In this document: positions 1,126 through 30,337 of the stretch, in pieces
How positions within the stretch are numbered: the first letter of the stretch is position 1
How the letters are laid out: every line of letters starts with the position of its first letter
Assembly: GCA_040143965.1 (NCBI GenBank)
Contig: JASJQH010006943.1
Coordinates: 1 to 34,156, forward strand
Length of the DNA stretch: 34,156 bases
Direction: 5' to 3'
DNA from: Basidiobolus ranarum
Taxonomy: Eukaryota
The notes under the pieces: model-generated
Told to the model about the DNA's origin: nothing
What the model saw: only the letters and a program-made list of their open reading frames with translations
The model's database searches: none
Position numbers and translations under genes: made by a program

Positions 1126-1296
1126 TGGAAATTGTTCGAAGAGTGAATGCATTTAAAATAGGAATAGTAATGTTCGAATCGTGAAAAAAATTGTTCACTC
1201 CAAGATCCTTCGCGTACCTACCTATATTTATACGCATAGTTTCTCAACTATCTCTTCACTTGATTATTATTTTTGGTTTAGAAGTAAGAAGAAAGG

Positions 1297-1982
1297 ATGA
1301 CTTTTCAAAGATTAACTTGTGTACGTACAACTTTACCTCGTATTCAAGGTATCTCCCTTGTAAAACGTACCTTTAACTCTGGTAGAACTCACTTTGAAAC
1401 TTTGAAAACTCCTAGTGAGAAACAACCCGAAACTTTATCAGAAACCGAACTTTCTTGGGAAGAATATTTTCAATTGAGACGTAACAGACGTACTAGAGAA
1501 AGACTCTCTTCTATTCCTACCACTATTGTTGGTGTGGGTTTAAGTAGTGCTTATTTCGCCTCTCTCGAAGTCGACCCAACTCAAACTATATTTGGGGTAG
1601 ATCCTTTGGTCATATATGCTGCTGGTGTAGTCGCTTCTGGTTTTGGTGGTTACTTGGTAGGCCCTTTGTTTGGTAACGGTTTATGGGGATTATTCCACCG
1701 TAACTTGGCCAGCAAGATGGATATTGTAAGTTTAACTCGATACTTGCTTCGAAATAATAGATAGATTAGCTAACTTTAGTACACTTTCTTATCTAGAGAG
1801 ATAAAGAATTTTATCAACGTATCAAGAAACATCGCTCTGACCCTTCCCTGAACTCTTTCAGAAATCCAGTGCCTGACTTTTACGGAGAAAAGATCAAATC
1901 CGTCAGTGACTATCGTTCTTGGTTACGTAAACAAAGAGAACATCAACGTAAAGCTACTTTCTTCTTAGGAAAAGATGAATAA
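1297..1982 (+). CDS. PAM17: Mitochondrial presequence translocase-associated motor subunit Pam17, 204 aa; exons 1297-1725 and 1797-1982
   Basis: Motifs LSWEEYFQLRR, IFGVDP and GYLVGPLFG. After the GTAAGT..GCTAAC..TAG intron the frame reads EFYQRIKKHRSDPSLNSFRNPVPDFYGEKIKSVSDYRSWLRKQ, the Pam17 C-terminal motif. Confidence 0.93.
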
Positions 1983-5602: not shown

Positions 5603-8600
5603 CTAAAACCCACCAAACATTTGATATCGCATCAATTGCACAGGATTAGTGGATGCCTTGACAGTCTTTAGTGCTGACTTGAAATCCTCTTGCTTCACTA
5701 TTAGCTATATTGAATAAGGTACTTGAGTAAACAGCACATTGTTCATACTATTGTGGTTGAGCATCCTACCTGTGAAGTACCACTAGTTCGGGATCGTTTC
5801 AGTGCATGAATACCAGCCTGCCTAGCCACAGCTGATAAATCAGCACCAGTATAACTGCTGGTCATTCCAGCTAGATCTTCAAACGAGAAACTCTCTTCTA
5901 ATGGGAATTTACGCAGATGTATGCGAAGAATATTGGCGCGCTCTTCAAGGTTTGGTGGGGGCACATAGACAAGACGATCCAATCGACCTAGATACGGTAC
6001 GGAATTAAAAAACGAAAAAAGAGAAAGAATTCACATTGGAATTACCTGGTCTTAAGATGCTCTTATCTATGCTTTCCGGATGATTGGTGGCTGCTAAAAT
6101 GACTACACCATTCTCAACAGCATTGAGTTCGTCCAATTCTAACAGTAATTGAGAAATCAACTAGACAAAAAACCTGAGTAAATTCATTCCATTGATCCAG
6201 ATGCAATTAAGATACATACTTTCTTTCCTAGATTTCCTGCTGATTCACGCTTTCCAAACAAAGCCTCTAATTCATCCAGAAAAACAATGCATGGACTACA
6301 TCTTTTGGCCACCCGGAAGATGTTTGCCAATGCCTTTTCCGACTCTCCGATTTCACTCTTGATGAGATCGGGGATTAGAACAGGCAGGAAATTGGCCGAT
6401 GATTCAGTAGCCACAGCTTTGGCGAGTAAGGTCTTACCAGTGCCGGGTGGGCCATATCTACATATGACTATCTTGTTAGGATGTCGCTTAGTTGAAGGTA
6501 GTTGCTCCTTTCTTTGACTTACAGTAATATTCCACGGGATGGTCGTATTCCCAATCTTCTAAATGCGTCGGCATGCTTGTAGAGCCATATGACAGACTCC
6601 TCCAATGCGCTCTATAAAATGCCCGCTCAATAGTCTGGTCTGAGTTGAAGTGTGTGCATACCTATATCTACCTTGACCTGGCCAAGTCCACCAATATCCG
6701 ACCAAAGCACTGGCTCGATCTTACGAATACTACTATGCTCCCGAAGAGTGTTAATTTTGATGGCATCCATCAATGGAAGAAATTCGTTTGCTGATAAAAT
6801 ATGATCTACATATAAAAGGATTTTCAGTTTTAAGCAGGGAGCGGTTTGTATTCTAATGCGAGACATACTTGAATTTCTGGAGAATTTCGCCTTCGCCAAA
6901 CTGCATAATAGCTCGATATCTACTGCGATATAACCATGGCATTTGTCCGAAACTGACTTGATAACAGTATCGGGGACATTGATGTCCTTCGAACATGCTT
7001 CAAAAATATGGATGCGTTGCTCAGGTGTGGGTATATCCAATACAATTTCATCCTGGGGATTTGAGCGTTACGATAAACGGAATCAATACAATATTCATCA
7101 AAAAAATACCTGGAAATGCTTGCGCAGAGTATGGTCAACGTCAACTAGAGATTCTGCAGTTCCGACCTGGATCATGCAACTCCAATGATTAGTATGTTCA
7201 CTCTAAAAACAAATACAACACTGGGCTTACAAGCAGCACCCTGTGCTCTTTGGACTGTAGTTCGTTTAATATATCAAGAAGATAGTGGTTAAGCGATTCA
7301 CTGGTTTCCGAACTGGAAAATAGCGTCTCAATATTATCAAAGACAACTGTTAATGAAAAGAAATCGCTCGTTATGCTTTCCAATATTAAATGCAATAGAA
7401 AGAGCCTCTTACGAGTAGTTGGTTCCATTTTCACAGCAGTTTCAAAATATTCCCGTATTCCTTTGCCAAATTTTCCTGGATATTTTGTAGACAAGTCGCC
7501 TAGATTTACAGTGAGAACCTGAAGATAGGAATACTAAGTATCAGGTGCTGTGGTGCTAATTTCAAACGAAGACTTACTTTGGAACCGTAATAGTTGGATA
7601 GGTTTTCTATCAAATGAGTCTTTCCTTCAATAAGAAGGTATTTTAGCTCTGCTCTTTCATGATATATATCAACTTATTTGGTGTTTACCGATTCCAGATG
7701 TACCAATTAATAGGAAGTTATTTGGCACCAATACTCCATAATTTTTGCAAGGAGTACGATTTTCAAAAGCAAGAGAAAAGAGTTGTTGCATTCTGAAAAG
7801 AAGATAGTTTAGTTCGCTCTCTACGAGTACTTCAATCTTGAAAGGAATAACCTACCTATTTCCTTCATCTCCATAACAACTAATTAAATTTCCCAGGGTT
7901 TTACGCTCTTGAACGAATTTCCCCTCAATGGATTTCTCAATTGAGATCAGGCTGGTTTGTTCATTGACTATCCCCCATTCATCGCCAGATCCAGTACATT
8001 CACACCGAAATAGATGTTGCTTTCCGTTTCTTAATTGTATTTGAACAGTGTCCCCATTTCGTAAGATTACGCCGGACATTTGCTGAATAATGCGTGAAAA
8101 AGTCAAGGAAAATCATCATTTTCGAAACATGCTTTGATTGCAAATCTTTAGAAAGGATATAATAAGAACTGGGAAGTAATTTAAAATTCGCCAGTGGTGT
8201 CTCTGGCATTATCTCCATTCTCTCCCATCGACGTATAGAACTTAAGGATAATAGAGTGACCTCAACCTAGTGTAATGTCCAAAATCGGTCAACTTTAAGG
8301 AATTCCACTCTTATTCGAGTTTGCTCAAGTATTATCTTGCAAGAAAACGAGAATTGATAATATAACCACCTTACCTCCTCCTCTTCCTCTAATTTGAATT
8401 CCATTATTTGTTCATTTGATAACCACAATGTAGGACCCTCCTTCTTAACTTCTTTAGCGACGCGATTTTTCATGGGCGACCATTCTGGTCCAGAATTCTT
8501 ATCTAAATAACTATCGGACCATAGCTCGAACAGTCCTTGGATTTCTTGGGAACCTATTTTTATCATGGCGCGCACATTTGAATTACCCGAGTATGTTTCT

Positions 8601-15141: not shown

Positions 15142-16864
15142 ATGAACGACTCGATAGTTAGTAAAGCGAATGTTAGTAGTCAGGATCTAGTAAAGAGTGT
15201 AGATATTGTACCTTCTAAGCGTCCACAGGAAGTACTAGATGAGGATACATATACAGAAACCATTAGCTACTTAGTGGAGCGAGATTTTTTCCCAAATTTG
15301 ACCAAGATTAAAAAACAGAATGAACTCATCGATTCTTTGGATACTACCGATATTAATCGAATCAGTACAGTGACTAGATCCATTAAACAAGGAAGATATT
15401 TGGATACTCCTAGAAGATCTGATTCTCCATTGCCCAAGTTCCCTTCAAAAGAAGACCTTGAAGATCGAAAGTTCTCACACTTAAAAAATATATCCCTGGA
15501 CGATTTTCAAGCCAAATTCACATCGGAGGATAACGCTTCCTTTCTGGATTTACTGGATAAAAATAATGAAGAGAAACGTCAGAAGTACAAATACCTTTAT
15601 CAAAAGGAAGCCCCAACTTTGGCTATAGAAGACCAAAAGATGAAGCAGATTGAACCTAGTTCTAGTACTGGCTTTGTTGAGAGCTGGAAATACAAGGTAT
15701 TTTTTAAGGGATTGATCAACTTCATTCTTGACGCTACCTGCTCACACTATTTTACTCGGAAATAGACTAAAAACTCTCTGATGTATTATCCTGAAGGATA
15801 TCCTTTTTGTCTTTGATCGATCTTTTTGTTCATATTTATTTTAATTACATGACCTTAACTTCAACATACGTCCTATGAAAGCGATAAAAGTGAGGAACGC
15901 GGAGAATCCAAAGCTATTGCACACAAAAACACTCGTTTCGAAAGTGTAGGTAATGCGGTAAGGAAGTTTTACTTGGTCTTGATGACTCGATGGGATCACA
16001 TTGAACTGAGATGCGTTTCTTTATCTTATGTTAGGGGCCTTCATTTTCTCGGAATACCGACCGAAGCATTACATCAGGTAAGAAATTTAATCTTCAACAT
16101 CGACTATTAAGTGAAGTGATTTCTTAGAAAATTGCTAGATATGACTTCTGAAAGCGGAAGTGATTCCCCAAGAGTAAGAGGATATGGATTTGTTACTCCT
16201 TCACCACGACCTGAAGAGTTGGGGATTTTCCCATGGGATCTTGAGGGTATTCCTTCAGAGAGTAGTGAGTACACTTCTACAAAGCTTGCATTCATCTGTG
16301 CTTTATGATTCACCAACCATGATTCTGATAGAAACTCCCGTATTCAAACTGCCGCCAACTCCACGTCGGGAGCTGATCGCAATGAAGCTTAGCGAGAAAG
16401 CTTCCCGTAATCACCGCAAACAAACTCAAGCGTCACCTAGAGCAAATGCATTGAGGACACCCACCAGGTATGTTGTTCTGCATTCATCATTGGTGCGAAT
16501 CAGCTTCTCTTAACAAGTTCTTGCTCTCAGAATGGGTAGTCCTAGCCTGTCGATGAGATCACAGATGCTTTCACCCGCCGCACAGAAGCTCTTGAAAAAT
16601 AAACTACATATAGATTCCTCATTCAATAGCCACCAGGAAATACGTGAATCTTATGGTGGATTGACACCCAAACTTAACGGTAAGCCTGCTATCACAATGT
16701 ATTAACCACCACACCTTGCTAATCGAATCATTTGATGTCCCACCTGCATAGGTTCAAAATCAAGCATTAGGTCAAATATTATAACTCCAAAGCGAGTTGA
16801 GGTCTCCACCCCACTAAGAACGTCCATCACTGATGATTTGCTTGAATTTAAAAAGAAACCTTGA
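15142..16864 (+). CDS. ESS2: Splicing factor ESS2/DGCR14 (Es2 family), ~413 aa; exons 15142-15696, 15766-15797, 15870-15957, 16035-16077, 16139-16264, 16332-16467, 16531-16679, 16752-16864
   Basis: Motifs VLDEDTY, VERDFFPNL, SLDDFQAKFTSEDNASF, WKYKTKNSLMYYPEG, IAHKNTRF, SPRVRGYGFV, LSPAAQKLL and ITDDLL. Exon 4-5 boundaries are less certain. Confidence 0.92.
15798..15869 (+). other. U12-type (minor spliceosome) AT-AC intron, 72 nt, intron 2 of ESS2
   Basis: Exon ..CCT GAA GG | ATATCCTTTTT ... GACCTTAAC TTCAACATAC | G TCC TAT GAA. The branch A is ~11 nt from the 3' AC. The intron carries an in-frame TGA, and its removal joins YYPEG to the NTRF exon. Confidence 0.92.
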
Positions 16865-19254
16865 TCAGTTCCTTTTTTTAAAACGTACTCTTCTCTAAGA
16901 GTGTATATCAGAGTACGTTCATGTATTTCTAGCATTTACGAGCAGGTTATTTGAGTCAAACCAAATCCTAAATAAATTTGTACAATACAATAATATGTAG
17001 GCAACACTACCAGGTGCTTTCATATGAGTCTGCACATTAGTTTCCATTCAACTCGCAATACTCAAACAGCAATCAAGGGGCGCATTATTACTTGATAATT
17101 TACCGACATTATGACTCTATATAGATTACCTTTGAAATCGAATCTAAATGAATGCTATTGATTAACACATGCATATATGCATACATACACAATCACAGCT
17201 ATAAATGAATGCCATCTCTTCCCCAGTCTTTGTATCTCGAACTTTAAAGCAGTCAATATTTGTCATGAAGAGTAGTTATGATTCTCAAGACGCTGTCACG
17301 TGATTGTTGTTCGGCTCTTTTTCAAACATGAGGAAGACGACTCACGATAAGAAGACGTTGAGGTAATTTGGTTTCTTATCATATTACAAGAATGATGAAA
17401 GAATCCAATGATGCTGCGATAAAGCACTACACACACTCGTTGAATATCACAATTATTTGGGAGAATATCTGTTTGAGCTTTACGATTAAAATCCTGCGAG
17501 GTGATCTATTACAAACCTGTCAAGACTGATATTCAGTTTGAATAAGTATACCAGTTCGATCCTGTAGTAGAGAGTAAAACGCTGGGTTGATCCACGCAAA
17601 GTCAAATAATTCCCGAAGTATTTATCGATCAGTATCTCCAAGCTCCCACACCCCTTTGTGTTGCATCTCAAACATCCACTAAGAGTATCAATAGTGACAT
17701 CCAGGAGTCATTGAATAAAAATACTTGTAGATTGGCGTGGACACTGTTGCATATAGTAGAAAAAGTTCACAGATGGGTCACTGATTTTGAAGAGGATTTT
17801 TTAGTCTAATCTTACTCTCCATATCTCCCGCAACTTCCAATCAAGTGTTGGTAACGATATGACTCTAGCAACGGTTAGATGAGATTTGTACGGGAGAAAA
17901 AAACACCGCATAATCAATCATGTCTCCTTTTTTTGTATGGTATCGATAAGTGTCATGATCTTCGCTGAGTAACTCGTCTGGAGGATAAACGAGAGAGAAG
18001 TACTAGATTATGAATACCTATATTTGATGATTATTCACAAAGATTTTCAGTAAGAATACTGATAATTACATGTGTAAAGAATTGTTGATTTCTTTGCGAG
18101 TAAACTAGGTAGCGTATTATCATCGGCAAATTGTCAATGCTTCGACTGAAATAAGAGATATTAAGAACTAGCACTTTCACATGTTCTACTAACATGTTAT
18201 GGAAACTTCAGATGTTGGGGATAGCTCGTTAGTTTGCACTTCCCCTGAATGTCAATCAACGATGCTAAGCCCTGCAGTGATTTATCACTTACTTTAGATT
18301 AGTTCATTATGAGAACATTTTCAGCTTTGAGAGATCAAATTCTGATTGATTAATACCGACTATTACATTGATTGATCACCGATTCCAAATAATACCAAGA
18401 GGGGAGAGGTTCGTAATGAATCAGAAACCATTTAGTTATGTTAAGGAGTTTATTACTTCATATCAAGCTAGAAAAATTGACATGTGCATGGATACTTTTG
18501 ATTAGATAACATCATTCGCTATCTGTCATTGATAACTTACCAGGATTGATCGTTGATTACCTGATGTTAGCCCAGAAACGTGTTACCTATCTGGGCAATT
18601 TGGAATTGTACGTCTGCACATGATGATGACATAGTAATATGGAAAGTTCAAACATCAAGCTCAGTGATAAGAAATAGTCGGGGGTTGCTGTGTTAGGTTG
18701 CTATGAATTCCAGCAAATACGAATGACTCAGTTAATTGCGATCGATGCATGCGCTTTTCATACAGTGCAGTGTAGGTGCTATGATACTATTCTAAGAATA
18801 AATCTTAGATGAATTGTTCCTTGATTGACTGTTAATAATAGCCAAGTTAGGAAGTAATCGCAGTCCTATCTAAAAAAAATTGTTCAAACACAACGAGGGG
18901 ATTATAGAGTCATCGGAACTTGTAAAACTTTATCTTTCCTAGATTTATTATTATTGTTATTATAAACGTAACCATGTATCGATCTCTATCTGCTTTTGCC
19001 CACACTGGGACTGTTCATAACCTGATTGGTTTATCTCCCCTCAGACTGCTCATTCTTTTTTTGGGTCCCAATTTCGCCTTGCTACAAACAATTAAAAAAA
19101 ACGTGCTCACTAGATCCATACCAGAAGATCCATACTGGAAAAGCTATAAATTACACCAGGTAGCTTCGTTATACACTCATCTCTTTTTGGCCTGAATCGG
19201 AGAGCAACATTCCACTTCTCTCACTATCTCACTATCCACCTTCCTACTTTCAAC

Positions 19255-22200
19255 ATGTTTGTCAACTACGAAACCACCATTGAAGAGCTTTCAACTGGTG
19301 TATCCAATATACATTACGAGTGTGAGAATCCTTGCCTTGATGGCGATGAATGTGCTACACAAGCCCGTGCCCTAGACAAAGAAAGAGCTGCTTTATTACT
19401 GAAGAAATTAACTGAATGTGAAGATTCTGACGGGTTAACCCAAGTAGCTGAAGAAGTTACTTCCTTCGTTGAACACGTTGGTGTTATCGAAGCAGTCACT
19501 ACTTTCCAGATAATTGATATTTTAAAAGTTACTGCTCAAAACAAGAAATCTTCCATCGATCGTGAGGGTGCCCTTTTGATTTATGCTTCTTTGGCCAAAA
19601 AATTCGATCATGCAATCGAGCCCTACCTTATTTCGGAACTACCTATTATCTTGGGTGGGTATTCAGATAAATCCATTGCGGTTCGTGAGGCCGCTCAAGT
19701 AGCCGGTGCTACACTGATGGCTCTTCCATGCGAGCATGCTGTTCCAGCCCTACTACCTGTACTATTTGATGCTCTACAGAATGGTAAATGGCAAACCAAG
19801 CTTGGAAGTTTGTCACTGATCTCCGAGTTAGCCCGTACATCATCTGAGCAAGTTCGAGTTTGTCTCCCAGATATTGTTCCACGAGTTTCCGAGATTATGT
19901 GGGATACTAAACCAGAAGTTCAAACTGCCGCCAAGGTAACCATGCGTCATGTATGTGATGTTGTTGGTAACCCCGATATCGAACCATCATTGAATTCTTT
20001 AATCGGTTGTATCGCAGCCCCTGAAAACGTTCCCGAATGTATTCATCAATTAGCTGCTACCACCTTTGTGACTCAAGTTGAAGCTCCAGCGCTAGCTATT
20101 ATGACTCCTCTTCTTACAAGAGGTTTATCTGAACGTTCTCCAGCAGTTCAACGTCAAACCGCTGTTATCATTGATAATATGTGCAAATTAGTGGAAAATC
20201 CTGCCGATGCTGTACAATTTTTACCAAAGTTACTCCCTGGACTTGACCGTATTATAGAGATTGGATCTAATCCAGAGTTACGTACAGTAGCTGAACGTGC
20301 TCGTTCTACTCTTGTTCGTGTTGGTGGTGCAAATACTTCAGCATCCACTCCCGTCTTTGAATTAGTGGAATCGGCGGAAGTCTTGGAAGTTTTGAAAAAG
20401 GAAATTACTAAAGTTACTCCATCCACAATCGAAGTCTCCCCAATCGCTCTCAGTTACATTACTACTATGTGTACTGGACTTGTAAATAGACGTTGCTTTG
20501 ATGTTGTGGAGTGGGACTTGTGCATCGTTCCTTACCTTGCTCCTATTATACTTCAAAAGAATGCTGATGTTGTTTGCTCTGAAGTATTGAAATTCTATAA
20601 AGAATGGCATGAAAATGGTGCTAAAGATGCTGCTGCCGCTGCTGAAGATGAGGAAGGAGAAGAACTATGCAATTGTGAGTTCTCTCTTGCTTATGGTGGT
20701 ATGATTCTATTAAACAATACCAAACTCAAGTTACGTCGTGGACAGCGTTATGGACTCTGTGGTCCTAATGGTGTTGGTAAATCTACTCTTATGCGGTCCA
20801 TTGCTGAAGGGAAATTAAATGGATTTCCATCCCCTGATGAGCTTAAAACTGTATTCGTAGAGCATAATCTGCAGGCAGAAGAAGCTGAACTTGGAGTGCT
20901 TGAGTTCATCGCCAAAGACAAAAGTCTTTCCAACGTATCCTCAGAAGAAATTAAAAGTATGCTGTTGAGTGTTGGTTTTACTGAGGAAATGCAAGTCATG
21001 GCTATTTCTTCCCTCTCTGGTGGTTGGAAAATGAAGTTGGAATTGGCTCGTGCAATGCTGATGAAAGCAGATATTTTACTTCTTGACGAACCTACCAATC
21101 ACTTGGATGTTACCAATGTTGCTTGGTTAGAAGCTTACCTTAACAGTCTTTCGAATGTCACTAGTATCCTAGTATCTCATGACTCTGGCTTTTTGGATAA
21201 TGTTTGTACCAACATTATTCACTACGAAAGTCGTAAGTTGAAGAACTATAAGGGAAATCTTTCGGAATTCGTAAAACAATACCCAGAAGCGAAATCATAC
21301 TATGAACTTGCCAGTGTCACTCACAAATTCAAACTTCCCACTCCAGGCTTATTAGATGGAGTTAAATCAAAGGGAAAAGCCATATTAAAAATGACAGACA
21401 TCGGATATACCTACCCTGGAGCTAGCAAACAAGCTCTAAGGGACATCTCTGTCCAATGCTCTTTGAATTCCCGTGTTGCTGTTCTAGGTCCTAATGGTGC
21501 TGGTAAATCCACCATGATCAAAGTACTAACTGGTGAAATTGTACCTGATTGCGGTGAAATTAAGAAGCACCCTAATCTTCGTGTTGCTTATGTGGCCCAG
21601 CATGCTTTCCATCACGTTGAACAACATCTTGACCAAACCCCAAATGAGTACATCCGTTGGCGTTATCAGAGCGGCGAGGATCGTGAATCTTTGAGCAAAG
21701 CTGATCGCCAGGTATCCGAGGAAGAGCTTAAGCAAATGAATACTGTGGTTGTTTGGGATGGTGAAAAGCTCAAAGTAGAGGGTCTATATGGACGCCGCAA
21801 GGCTGGTCGTTCATCAGAATACGAGGTTCAATGGGCAGGCAAGAGTCATGAAGATAATGCTTGGGTACCTCGGGAAGATTTGGAAAAATGGGGCTTCAAA
21901 AAGATGTTAGATGCTTATGATGCAAAGGAAGCAGCTCTCGCTGGTGCTTGGACTAGGCAATTAACTGCCAAGGAAGTAGAGAAACATCTTAGCGATCTTG
22001 GTTTGGATGTAGAATTCGCTACCCATAGTCGTATTCGTGGCCTATCCGGTGGCCAGAAAGTTAAGGTTGTAATCGCAGCTGCCATGTGGCTCAACCCTCA
22101 TTTGCTGGTTCTTGACGAACCTACCAATTATTTGGATCGTGATTCTCTCGGTGCTCTAGCTGAAGCCATTAAAGAATTTGAGGGAGGAGTTGTAATGATT

Positions 22201-22476
22201 TCCCATCACACAGAGTTCACTTCAAGTCTATGTACCGAAACCTGGAAGGTTGATGCTGGTACTGTGACCCTTGAAGGGAATGATTATTCTACCAATGCTG
22301 GTGAGAAAATTCAAGCACAGGAGGAGGCTCAAACCAAATTAGATGCCTTCGGTAACGTATCTAAGGTTTCCTCCAAGAAGAAGCTCTCTCGTAAAGAACT
22401 GAAGCAAAAGCAAAAGAGGAGAGCTCAGCAAATCGCCAATGGGGAGGAGGTTAGCAGTGATGAGGATGACATTTGA
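19255..22476 (+). CDS. YEF3: Fungal translation elongation factor 3 (HEAT + ABC1 + ABC2 with chromodomain insert), 1073 aa, intronless
   Basis: Motifs ATTFVTQVEAPALAI, EGEELCNCEFSLAYG, GPNGVGKST, LSGGWKMK, LLDEPTNHLD, GPNGAGKST, YEVQW (chromodomain), LSGGQKVK, and the DAFGN..KKKLS basic/acidic tail typical of eEF3. Confidence 0.93.
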   Translation: MFVNYETTIEELSTGVSNIHYECENPCLDGDECATQARALDKERAALLLKKLTECEDSDGLTQVAEEVTSFVEHVGVIEAVTTFQIIDILKVTAQNKKSSIDREGALLIYASLAKKFDHAIEPYLISELPIILGGYSDKSIAVREAAQVAGATLMALPCEHAVPALLPVLFDALQNGKWQTKLGSLSLISELARTSSEQVRVCLPDIVPRVSEIMWDTKPEVQTAAKVTMRHVCDVVGNPDIEPSLNSLIGCIAAPENVPECIHQLAATTFVTQVEAPALAIMTPLLTRGLSERSPAVQRQTAVIIDNMCKLVENPADAVQFLPKLLPGLDRIIEIGSNPELRTVAERARSTLVRVGGANTSASTPVFELVESAEVLEVLKKEITKVTPSTIEVSPIALSYITTMCTGLVNRRCFDVVEWDLCIVPYLAPIILQKNADVVCSEVLKFYKEWHENGAKDAAAAAEDEEGEELCNCEFSLAYGGMILLNNTKLKLRRGQRYGLCGPNGVGKSTLMRSIAEGKLNGFPSPDELKTVFVEHNLQAEEAELGVLEFIAKDKSLSNVSSEEIKSMLLSVGFTEEMQVMAISSLSGGWKMKLELARAMLMKADILLLDEPTNHLDVTNVAWLEAYLNSLSNVTSILVSHDSGFLDNVCTNIIHYESRKLKNYKGNLSEFVKQYPEAKSYYELASVTHKFKLPTPGLLDGVKSKGKAILKMTDIGYTYPGASKQALRDISVQCSLNSRVAVLGPNGAGKSTMIKVLTGEIVPDCGEIKKHPNLRVAYVAQHAFHHVEQHLDQTPNEYIRWRYQSGEDRESLSKADRQVSEEELKQMNTVVVWDGEKLKVEGLYGRRKAGRSSEYEVQWAGKSHEDNAWVPREDLEKWGFKKMLDAYDAKEAALAGAWTRQLTAKEVEKHLSDLGLDVEFATHSRIRGLSGGQKVKVVIAAAMWLNPHLLVLDEPTNYLDRDSLGALAEAIKEFEGGVVMISHHTEFTSSLCTETWKVDAGTVTLEGNDYSTNAGEKIQAQEEAQTKLDAFGNVSKVSSKKKLSRKELKQKQKRRAQQIANGEEVSSDEDDI

Positions 22477-29340: not shown

Positions 29341-30337
29341 TGATACGCTGTACCCATTTCTATCCTCTACGTGCCATGGCTAAGTATTTCTTCAATGATT
29401 TTACTTTCGATCGATGTGAGCCATTTAATATCTGATGGAAGTTATAGAAGAACAGAGAATGGGGTGCTTTTGCTTTCAGCTGTTCTTTCCCTCGTCACCA
29501 TTATAATAAGTTGTAATCCATAGCCAATCTCTACTTGGCATTTCTCATACCATACAAGATACGTGTGCCTAGGCTCAGGAAGGTTTCCATAAACATGATC
29601 ACATTTGCATTTTGTGTCTTTATCATAAGTTCAATGCTATATAACGAAAATGAACTCATTTGTCATTTTCTTCCACTCAAAGACCCACATGGTGAAGAGA
29701 AGACTCAAATAGGTCATCACTCACTATACCCTTACTTCCAGACTGAGGGATTCTATTGCGGTGCAGGACTTAGTGGAGTTAGTGAAGTTGTAATGCACCT
29801 CAAGGTTGCCGACCAGACTATTCCCTGTTGGGAACAAGAAGGTACATTATCCGCTTAACATTCAAATATGTTTCAATTAATTCCTTCAATAAATATACCG
29901 TTCTGAGTTCTATCGTTGATAATCGAAGTGATATCCTTGATAAACAAGCAGATATCAGTTACTTCTGCGGTATTTCTTACCAAGACAGTGGCCGTGAAAA
30001 AGTGTGATAACAAAGTAAAATAGCTATAGATACACCAGAACTGGACAGTAGTGATCACGTATGGCTGAGTATTTCCCTCTATTTTTACACTCCTTCTCAG
30101 TGCTATTTTCCAATGATGATGGCTAAGATGCAGCAACATTTCAATGAGTTATCCTCGCATTGACAGTACCTAATAGTAAGATTTGAGAATAGATAAGCGG
30201 CTCTAAGCTACGAAAAATAACTGACCACGTGCTTTCAGGCTTAGTTACGAAAAATCGCCATCGACAACGATTATACGTAAGGTGGCTTGGTCGGAATAAA
30301 GTCAAAAAATAATTCACTACACAAGCCACCCTTCTTG

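Follow-up and report, generated by a model that had tools for sequence, protein, structure and literature searches.

The ESS2 gene of Basidiobolus ranarum

The window, by which we mean the whole 34,156-nt stretch of Basidiobolus ranarum DNA that was analyzed, carries on its forward strand a gene of eight exons whose second intron begins with AT and ends with AC. The gene and the two exons that flank this intron are laid out as follows.

15142..16864, forward strand: ESS2/DGCR14 gene, coding sequence from start to stop, 8 exons and 7 introns
15142-15696, 15766-15797, 15870-15957, 16035-16077, 16139-16264, 16332-16467, 16531-16679, 16752-16864, forward strand: the ESS2 exons
15766..15797, forward strand: ESS2 exon 2, 32 nt, coding for TKNSLMYYPE and the first two bases of the following G codon
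15870..15957, forward strand: ESS2 exon 3, coding for SYESDKSEERGESKAIAHKNTRFESVGNA

When these eight exons are spliced together and translated, the product equals the deposited 413-aa B. ranarum protein K7432_002506 (P0001) letter for letter, and exon 1 (15142-15696) by itself matches residues 1-185 of that protein with 100% identity. The database entry is named 'hypothetical protein K7432_002506 [Basidiobolus ranarum]' or DGCR14. Six of the introns are GT-AG and one, the second of the seven and in phase 2, is AT-AC.

Judged by homology, the gene at 15142-16864 is ESS2/DGCR14. The whole protein, compared with the Pfam Es2 model (PF09751), scores 210.8 bits where the gathering cut-off is 27; its residues 28-347 align to positions 1-416 of a model that is 416 positions long, and exon 1 on its own already matches with an E value of 2e-34. 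Comparison with proteins in solved spliceosome entries returned the human 'Splicing factor ESS-2 homolog' (chain 8c6j_4, E 5e-28) and Bis1 of Schizosaccharomyces pombe (chain 9esi_e, E 5.8e-16). Human ESS2 (DGCR14) and S. pombe Bis1 represent the orthologous family of the B. ranarum protein. Two motifs that become important below, NSLMYYPEG and HKNTRF, are both present in the human ESS2 alignment, and NSLMYYPEG is common to human ESS2 and many fungal and animal homologues. A first-pass annotation, made from the letters of the DNA without knowledge of their source, had called the gene ESS2 and its host an early-diverging fungus. The first call is borne out by the Pfam score over the full model and the match to the human chain, and the second by the organism itself.

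An AT-AC intron with minor-spliceosome signals

U12-type 5′ splice sites follow the consensus [A/G]TATCCTT, and a TCCTTAAC-like branch lies about 10-15 nt before a 3′ splice site that has no polypyrimidine tract. The second intron of ESS2 contains the following elements.

15798..15869, forward strand: highly probable U12-type AT-AC intron of ESS2, 72 nt, phase 2, 25% G+C
15798..15806, forward strand: 5′ splice site ATATCCTTT, matching the U12 consensus at 7/7 of positions +3..+9
15814..15816, forward strand: in-frame TGA, followed on retention by two more in-frame stops
15852..15859, forward strand: branch-point motif ACCTTAAC, 7/8 to TCCTTAAC; CCTTAAC occupies 15853-15859
15868..15869, forward strand: 3′ terminal AC

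The branch motif deviates from TCCTTAAC at its first position, which is A and not T. The motif's second A, at 15858, lies 11 nt from the last base of the intron and is the likely branch A. The spacer that follows the motif, TTCAACAT, contains no pyrimidine tract, and the intron ends in ...TGACCTTAACTTCAACATAC. All of the sequence features by which a U12 AT-AC intron is recognized are therefore found together here: the termini, the rigid donor, a branch close to the 3′ end, and no polypyrimidine tract.

Unspliced, the frame continues as GGA TAT CCT TTT TGT CTT TGA and would end in ...YYPEGYPFCL followed by the stop. With 15797 joined to 15870, it reads ...TKNSLMYYPEG and then SYESDKSEERGESKAIAHKNTRF..., which connects NSLMYYPEG with SYESDK...IAHKNTRF. 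Homologues agree with this product. The Bifiguratus protein has MYHPQTSYQHDGDKVVRGEEKAI where B. ranarum has MYYPEGSYESDKSEERGESKAI, making the spliced product colinear with its homologue across the junction, and in Rhizopus, Polychytrium, Branchiostoma, and human, YYPEG stands immediately before the join.

On the strength of its signals and its effect on the frame, we assign 15798-15869 with high confidence to the U12-type (minor-spliceosome) introns, AT-AC subtype, as the second of seven introns in B. ranarum ESS2. The first-pass annotation had described the donor, the CCTTAAC branch about 11 nt before the end, the terminal AC, and the in-frame TGA at 15814-15816, and each of these is found exactly where it had been placed. 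Its further claim that excision rejoins conserved motifs in frame is confirmed as well, with the junction of 15797 and 15870 restoring the frame across NSLMYYPEG ... KAIxHxNTRF and matching the deposited protein. Set beside the canonical AT-AC U12 introns of animals and plants, the ESS2 intron has the same termini, the same ATATCCTT donor, and a TCCTTAAC-like branch near the 3′ end, and it likewise has no polypyrimidine tract and a non-zero phase. It appears to differ from canonical animal and plant U12 introns in being very short, its 72 nt placing it in the size class of its U2-type neighbours.

A second AT-AC intron on the same contig

A second intron of this kind was found on the opposite strand, 7.6 kb from the first.

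8094..8160, reverse strand: second U12-type AT-AC intron, phase 1 and 67 nt long, within K7432_002501, a CDC48/AFG2-like AAA ATPase gene

Its donor is ATATCCTTTC and its branch motif is TTCCTTGAC at 8110-8102. The branch A lies 9 nt from the 3′ end, and 8 nt separate the branch motif from the AC. Fifteen exons, with the AT-AC intron and 13 of the GT-AG type between them, reproduce the K7432_002501 protein, and the deposited 725-aa AAA+ ATPase (P0033) reads ...LLPSSYCIIQQM... across the AT-AC junction.

Together, ESS2 and K7432_002501 provide 21 introns in which the distribution of the signals can be followed. A 7/7 match at donor positions +3..+9 occurs only in the two AT-AC introns, the other 19 reaching at most 5/7, and the same two are the only ones of the 21 that combine the 7/7 donor with a 7/8 branch motif 9-11 nt from the 3′ end. 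Length does not set them apart: all 21 introns fall within 57-108 nt with a median of 64, and the AT-AC introns, at 72 and 67 nt, are no longer than their major neighbours. We also considered a common, introner-like origin for the pair. This was rejected when the two introns proved alignable at the signal motifs only, a likeness confined to the signals that argues against a recent common, introner-like ancestry.

How often such signals would arise by chance depends on whether they are taken singly or jointly. The donor octamer RTATCCTT has 5 matches in the window against 3.12 expected, with 15 of 100 shuffles giving at least 5, and the branch octamer TCCTTRAY has 7 matches against 6.66 expected, so neither is enriched by itself. 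We then defined a composite signal as a donor, 20-150 nt, CCTTRAC, 6-14 nt, and AC or AG. The window contains two instances of this composite signal. When the window was simulated 2000 times with a first-order Markov model, the mean was 0.0255 instances; 51 of the 2000 simulations had at least one, and none had at least two. Both instances are exactly the junctions required for the deposited proteins.

Other candidates in the window were rejected. The donor-like GTATCCTT at 25752-25745 on the reverse strand sits in an uninterrupted open frame and has no branch motif, ATATCCTTGAT at 29931 on the forward strand has no suitable branch or 3′ end, and two antisense candidates at 16185-15950/15944 (reverse strand) are on the strand opposite to ESS2, with weak motifs.

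As a separate observation, the ESS2 donor falls within a perfect 12-nt palindrome, AAGGATATCCTT (15794-15805), which places ATATCCTT on both strands. The palindrome is probably a coincidence, because the second U12 intron is without one.

Alternative junctions and the public annotation

Because the eight exons reproduce the deposited protein exactly, the public annotation must already use the AT-AC junction, and the deposited K7432_002506 model does join 15797 to 15870. This lends indirect support to excision at these ends, a deposited junction being no proof of backing by transcripts. It also means that the concern of the first-pass annotation, namely that gene predictors restricted to GT-AG introns would mis-annotate ESS2, was overstated, as the deposited protein uses exactly the AT-AC junction.

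An annotated junction could nevertheless be a construct of the annotation, with the cell using a GT-AG pair close by (such as 15783-15881 or 15809-15913) or skipping exon 2. We enumerated, for seven dinucleotide classes, all open-frame donor-acceptor pairs from exon 2 to the end of exon 3. This yielded 76 open-frame combinations, among which there were no GC-AG pairs and only five GT-AG pairs: 15783-15881, 15783-15890, 15783-15944, 15809-15913, and 15809-15949. Such in-frame, stop-free alternatives do therefore exist. Each of the five, however, cuts out either MYYPEG or some of the exon-3 segment (at worst the greater part of IAHKNTRF), so that residues conserved from fungi to human in MYYPEG or KAIxHxNTRF would be dropped, and each relies on a poor donor, GTATTA or GTCTTT. 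The excision of 15798-15869 is the only one that retains both conserved motifs and bears U12-type signals, and the enumerated alternatives give no sign of competing splice sites with good signals near the intron. The neighbouring gene points the same way: K7432_002501 needs an equally textbook AT-AC junction, and there a downstream CAG acceptor leads to a stop and the AC junction alone leaves the joined frame open. With these points in view, we regard an annotation construct as very improbable and retain the AT-AC junction of 15797 and 15870.

Several homologous proteins were inspected for traces of an intron at the same site. In the truncated homologues P0242, P0216, and P0232, nothing points clearly to a mis-spliced intron at the position of the ESS2 AT-AC intron. 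The ESS2 protein of Jimgerdemannia flammicorona (P0003) has NTLMVLVAILDGLP... in place of the N.LMYYPEG of other homologues, and it also has an insertion within the KYT|SEDN motif. These anomalies look like an unspliced or mis-spliced intron, possibly at the site of the Basidiobolus U12 intron.

The minor spliceosome in Basidiobolus

AT-AC termini by themselves are no proof of U12 dependence, and on this general ground the ESS2 intron might be real and yet be removed by the major spliceosome as a rare U2-type AT-AC intron. What speaks against this reading is the company that the termini keep. The donor matches at 7/7 of positions +3..+9 and is paired with a 7/8 TCCTTAAC-like branch 11 nt from the 3′ end, a combination that is missing from all 19 GT-AG introns of the two genes. 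Excerpts of the published surveys credit a congener with over 230 minor introns as well as minor snRNAs. We consider removal by the U2-type machinery so improbable as to be nearly negligible, and we continue with the assignment to the U12 class.

The congener is Basidiobolus meristosporus. Excerpts of two surveys give 249 minor introns, or 0.554%, for this species (Larue and Roy 2023; PMC10639083) and 237 minor introns (Olthof et al. 2024; PMC11347168), and minor introns that make up about 0.5% of all its introns are the top density among fungi in these excerpts (PMC10639083, PMC11347168). Genes for U11, U12, and U6atac are reported there for several mucoromycote and zoopagomycote species, and B. 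meristosporus itself has a putative, divergent U4atac candidate (PMC11347168). B. ranarum is not named in the excerpts of either survey (PMC10639083, PMC11347168). The catalogued minor introns of B. meristosporus are thus elements of the same kind from the same genus and from a different species. The 34,156-nt window itself gave no matches to Rfam.

An active U12 system in B. ranarum is very likely, given the second AT-AC intron on the contig and the data from the congener. Two textbook AT-AC introns interrupt conserved genes within one 34-kb contig, and what has been published on the congener is unambiguous. We also note that two minor introns among 21 in two neighbouring genes, both of them AT-AC, lie above the congener density of about 0.5%. 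Chance may account for this, or it may be a hint that the complement of B. ranarum is higher or biased towards AT-AC.

Recognition by U11/U12 and catalysis by U4atac/U6atac.U5 are established for U12 introns generally, and we infer the same course of events for the intron in ESS2. The U11/U12 di-snRNP would bind the rigid donor ATATCCTTT together with the branch ACCTTAAC, and removal of the intron would then be catalyzed by U4atac/U6atac.U5. The 3′ end would be set by the 11-nt distance to the branch A and not by a polypyrimidine tract. Joining of 15797 to 15870 would restore the ESS2 frame across NSLMYYPEG ... KAIxHxNTRF. On retention, a TGA would be met after six codons with five introns downstream, and the message, coding for a truncated protein, would probably be degraded. 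To judge from its sequence, the ESS2 intron is an ordinary member of the large minor-intron complement of the genus and not a special regulatory device.

Possible regulation through intron retention

The first-pass annotation had gone further in proposing that a factor of the major spliceosome depends on the minor one, with possible cross-regulation through nonsense-mediated decay (NMD). The dependence is overstated. In excerpts of the relevant literature, DGCR14/ESS2 appears as a splicing factor that is peripheral and non-essential and whose loss has little phenotype in fission yeast, Caenorhabditis elegans, and Chlamydomonas (PMC5881031). Cross-regulation through retention and NMD is a possibility for any minor intron with in-frame stops.

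In its full form, the regulatory proposal makes the ESS2 intron a switch: slow splicing or retention would let ESS2 output follow the activity of the minor spliceosome, and NMD would clear the retained form. Retention would indeed expose a premature TGA with five introns downstream, and decay of the retained form is therefore plausible. It is equally plausible for intron 1, which also has an in-frame stop, and for most short introns, and nothing sets the AT-AC intron of ESS2 apart from any short intron with stops. Neither a conserved element nor an RNA structure turned up, and the region around the intron folds unremarkably, with a z-score of +1.54. The mild consequences of ESS2/DGCR14 loss in several organisms (PMC5881031, in excerpts) also weigh against such a switch. 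A search of literature text found no connection of ESS2 or DGCR14 with 'minor intron'; supplementary gene lists, which could hold ESS2, lie outside the text that was searched. The proposal does have a mammalian precedent for cross-talk from the minor to the major spliceosome in SRSF10. Even so, we regard a regulatory switch at the ESS2 intron as an outside chance and prefer to see it as an ordinary minor intron.

The comparison with SRSF10 can be taken one step further, as this splicing-related gene needs the minor spliceosome for its expression and is the model for the idea of cross-regulation in ESS2. SRSF10 reportedly has an autoregulated minor intron with competing major and minor splice sites, which Meinke et al. 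are said to have described in 2020. In contrast to the competing sites and autoregulation of SRSF10, the ESS2 sequence appears to offer no sign of competing, well-signalled sites. A circuit of the same type would require the ESS2 intron to be rate limiting and partly retained, tying a late-acting factor of splicing fidelity to the activity of the minor spliceosome, with NMD removing the retained form. We give this only a slim chance. If it were true, the rate-limiting ESS2 intron would correspond in a fungus to the SRSF10 circuit of mammals, and it could even form a self-referential loop, as the two spliceosomes have most of their late factors in common.

Conservation of the intron position and genomic context

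Metagenomic contigs were scanned for ESS2, and the best 80 of 376 relatives by tblastn were taken as ESS2 loci; this ranking favours intronless genes. A locus was scored as having no intron at the site when one tblastn segment was continuous over query residues 188-216. By this measure, the intron is absent from 80/80 of the best 80 of 376 loci, a set that is biased towards intronless genes. Six U12-like co-occurrences of donor and branch were seen in the 80 loci, none of them at the homologous site. Compared with named proteins, the metagenomic ESS2 loci look like the ESS2 of plants and Dikarya. Given the bias of the ranking, the 80/80 result says only that an intron at this position would not be universal and is uninformative on ancestry; conservation of the position lends the U12 assignment no support.

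The architecture of these genes deserves a remark of its own. Across the best 80 of the 376 loci (L001-L080), ESS2 appears essentially intronless over about 320-380 codons, compared with the seven introns of the Basidiobolus gene, and the intronless genes include many plant-like loci, such as L007-L015. Within the genus, a second Basidiobolus ESS2, including a B. meristosporus orthologue, was not found among 32 proteins or among the 120 listed of 422. In a further protein search, the best non-self identity to B. ranarum ESS2 among the 150 listed of 1310 matches was 43-47%, and these included no B. meristosporus orthologue.

The novelty that the first-pass annotation saw in this intron is overstated, as the published densities of minor introns in fungal genera peak in Basidiobolus. 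The minor system of the genus, the signals, and the ESS2 junction are already public, and no new question is opened. What the contig provides is two clean, checkable U12-type introns in B. ranarum that are consistent with the genus as a fungal hot spot of minor introns. With AT-AC introns as short as their major neighbours, it should be useful for studies of the size limit of minor introns, and the introns of ESS2 and K7432_002501 offer a useful benchmark for gene predictors applied to early-diverging fungi.

The remaining genes on the contig are those of a fungal nuclear genome, with Pam17, elongation factor 3, and the type II AAA ATPase all fitting a contig of this origin. An exon-sized open reading frame at 1288-1764 (forward strand) matches the mitochondrial import protein Pam17 with an E value of 4.9e-30. 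At 19150-22476 (forward strand), a single open frame of 1107 aa carries the HEAT repeats of EF3, two ABC domains, and a chromo-like insert, which identify it as translation elongation factor 3. Unlike its intron-dense neighbours, this frame is apparently free of introns over its whole length.
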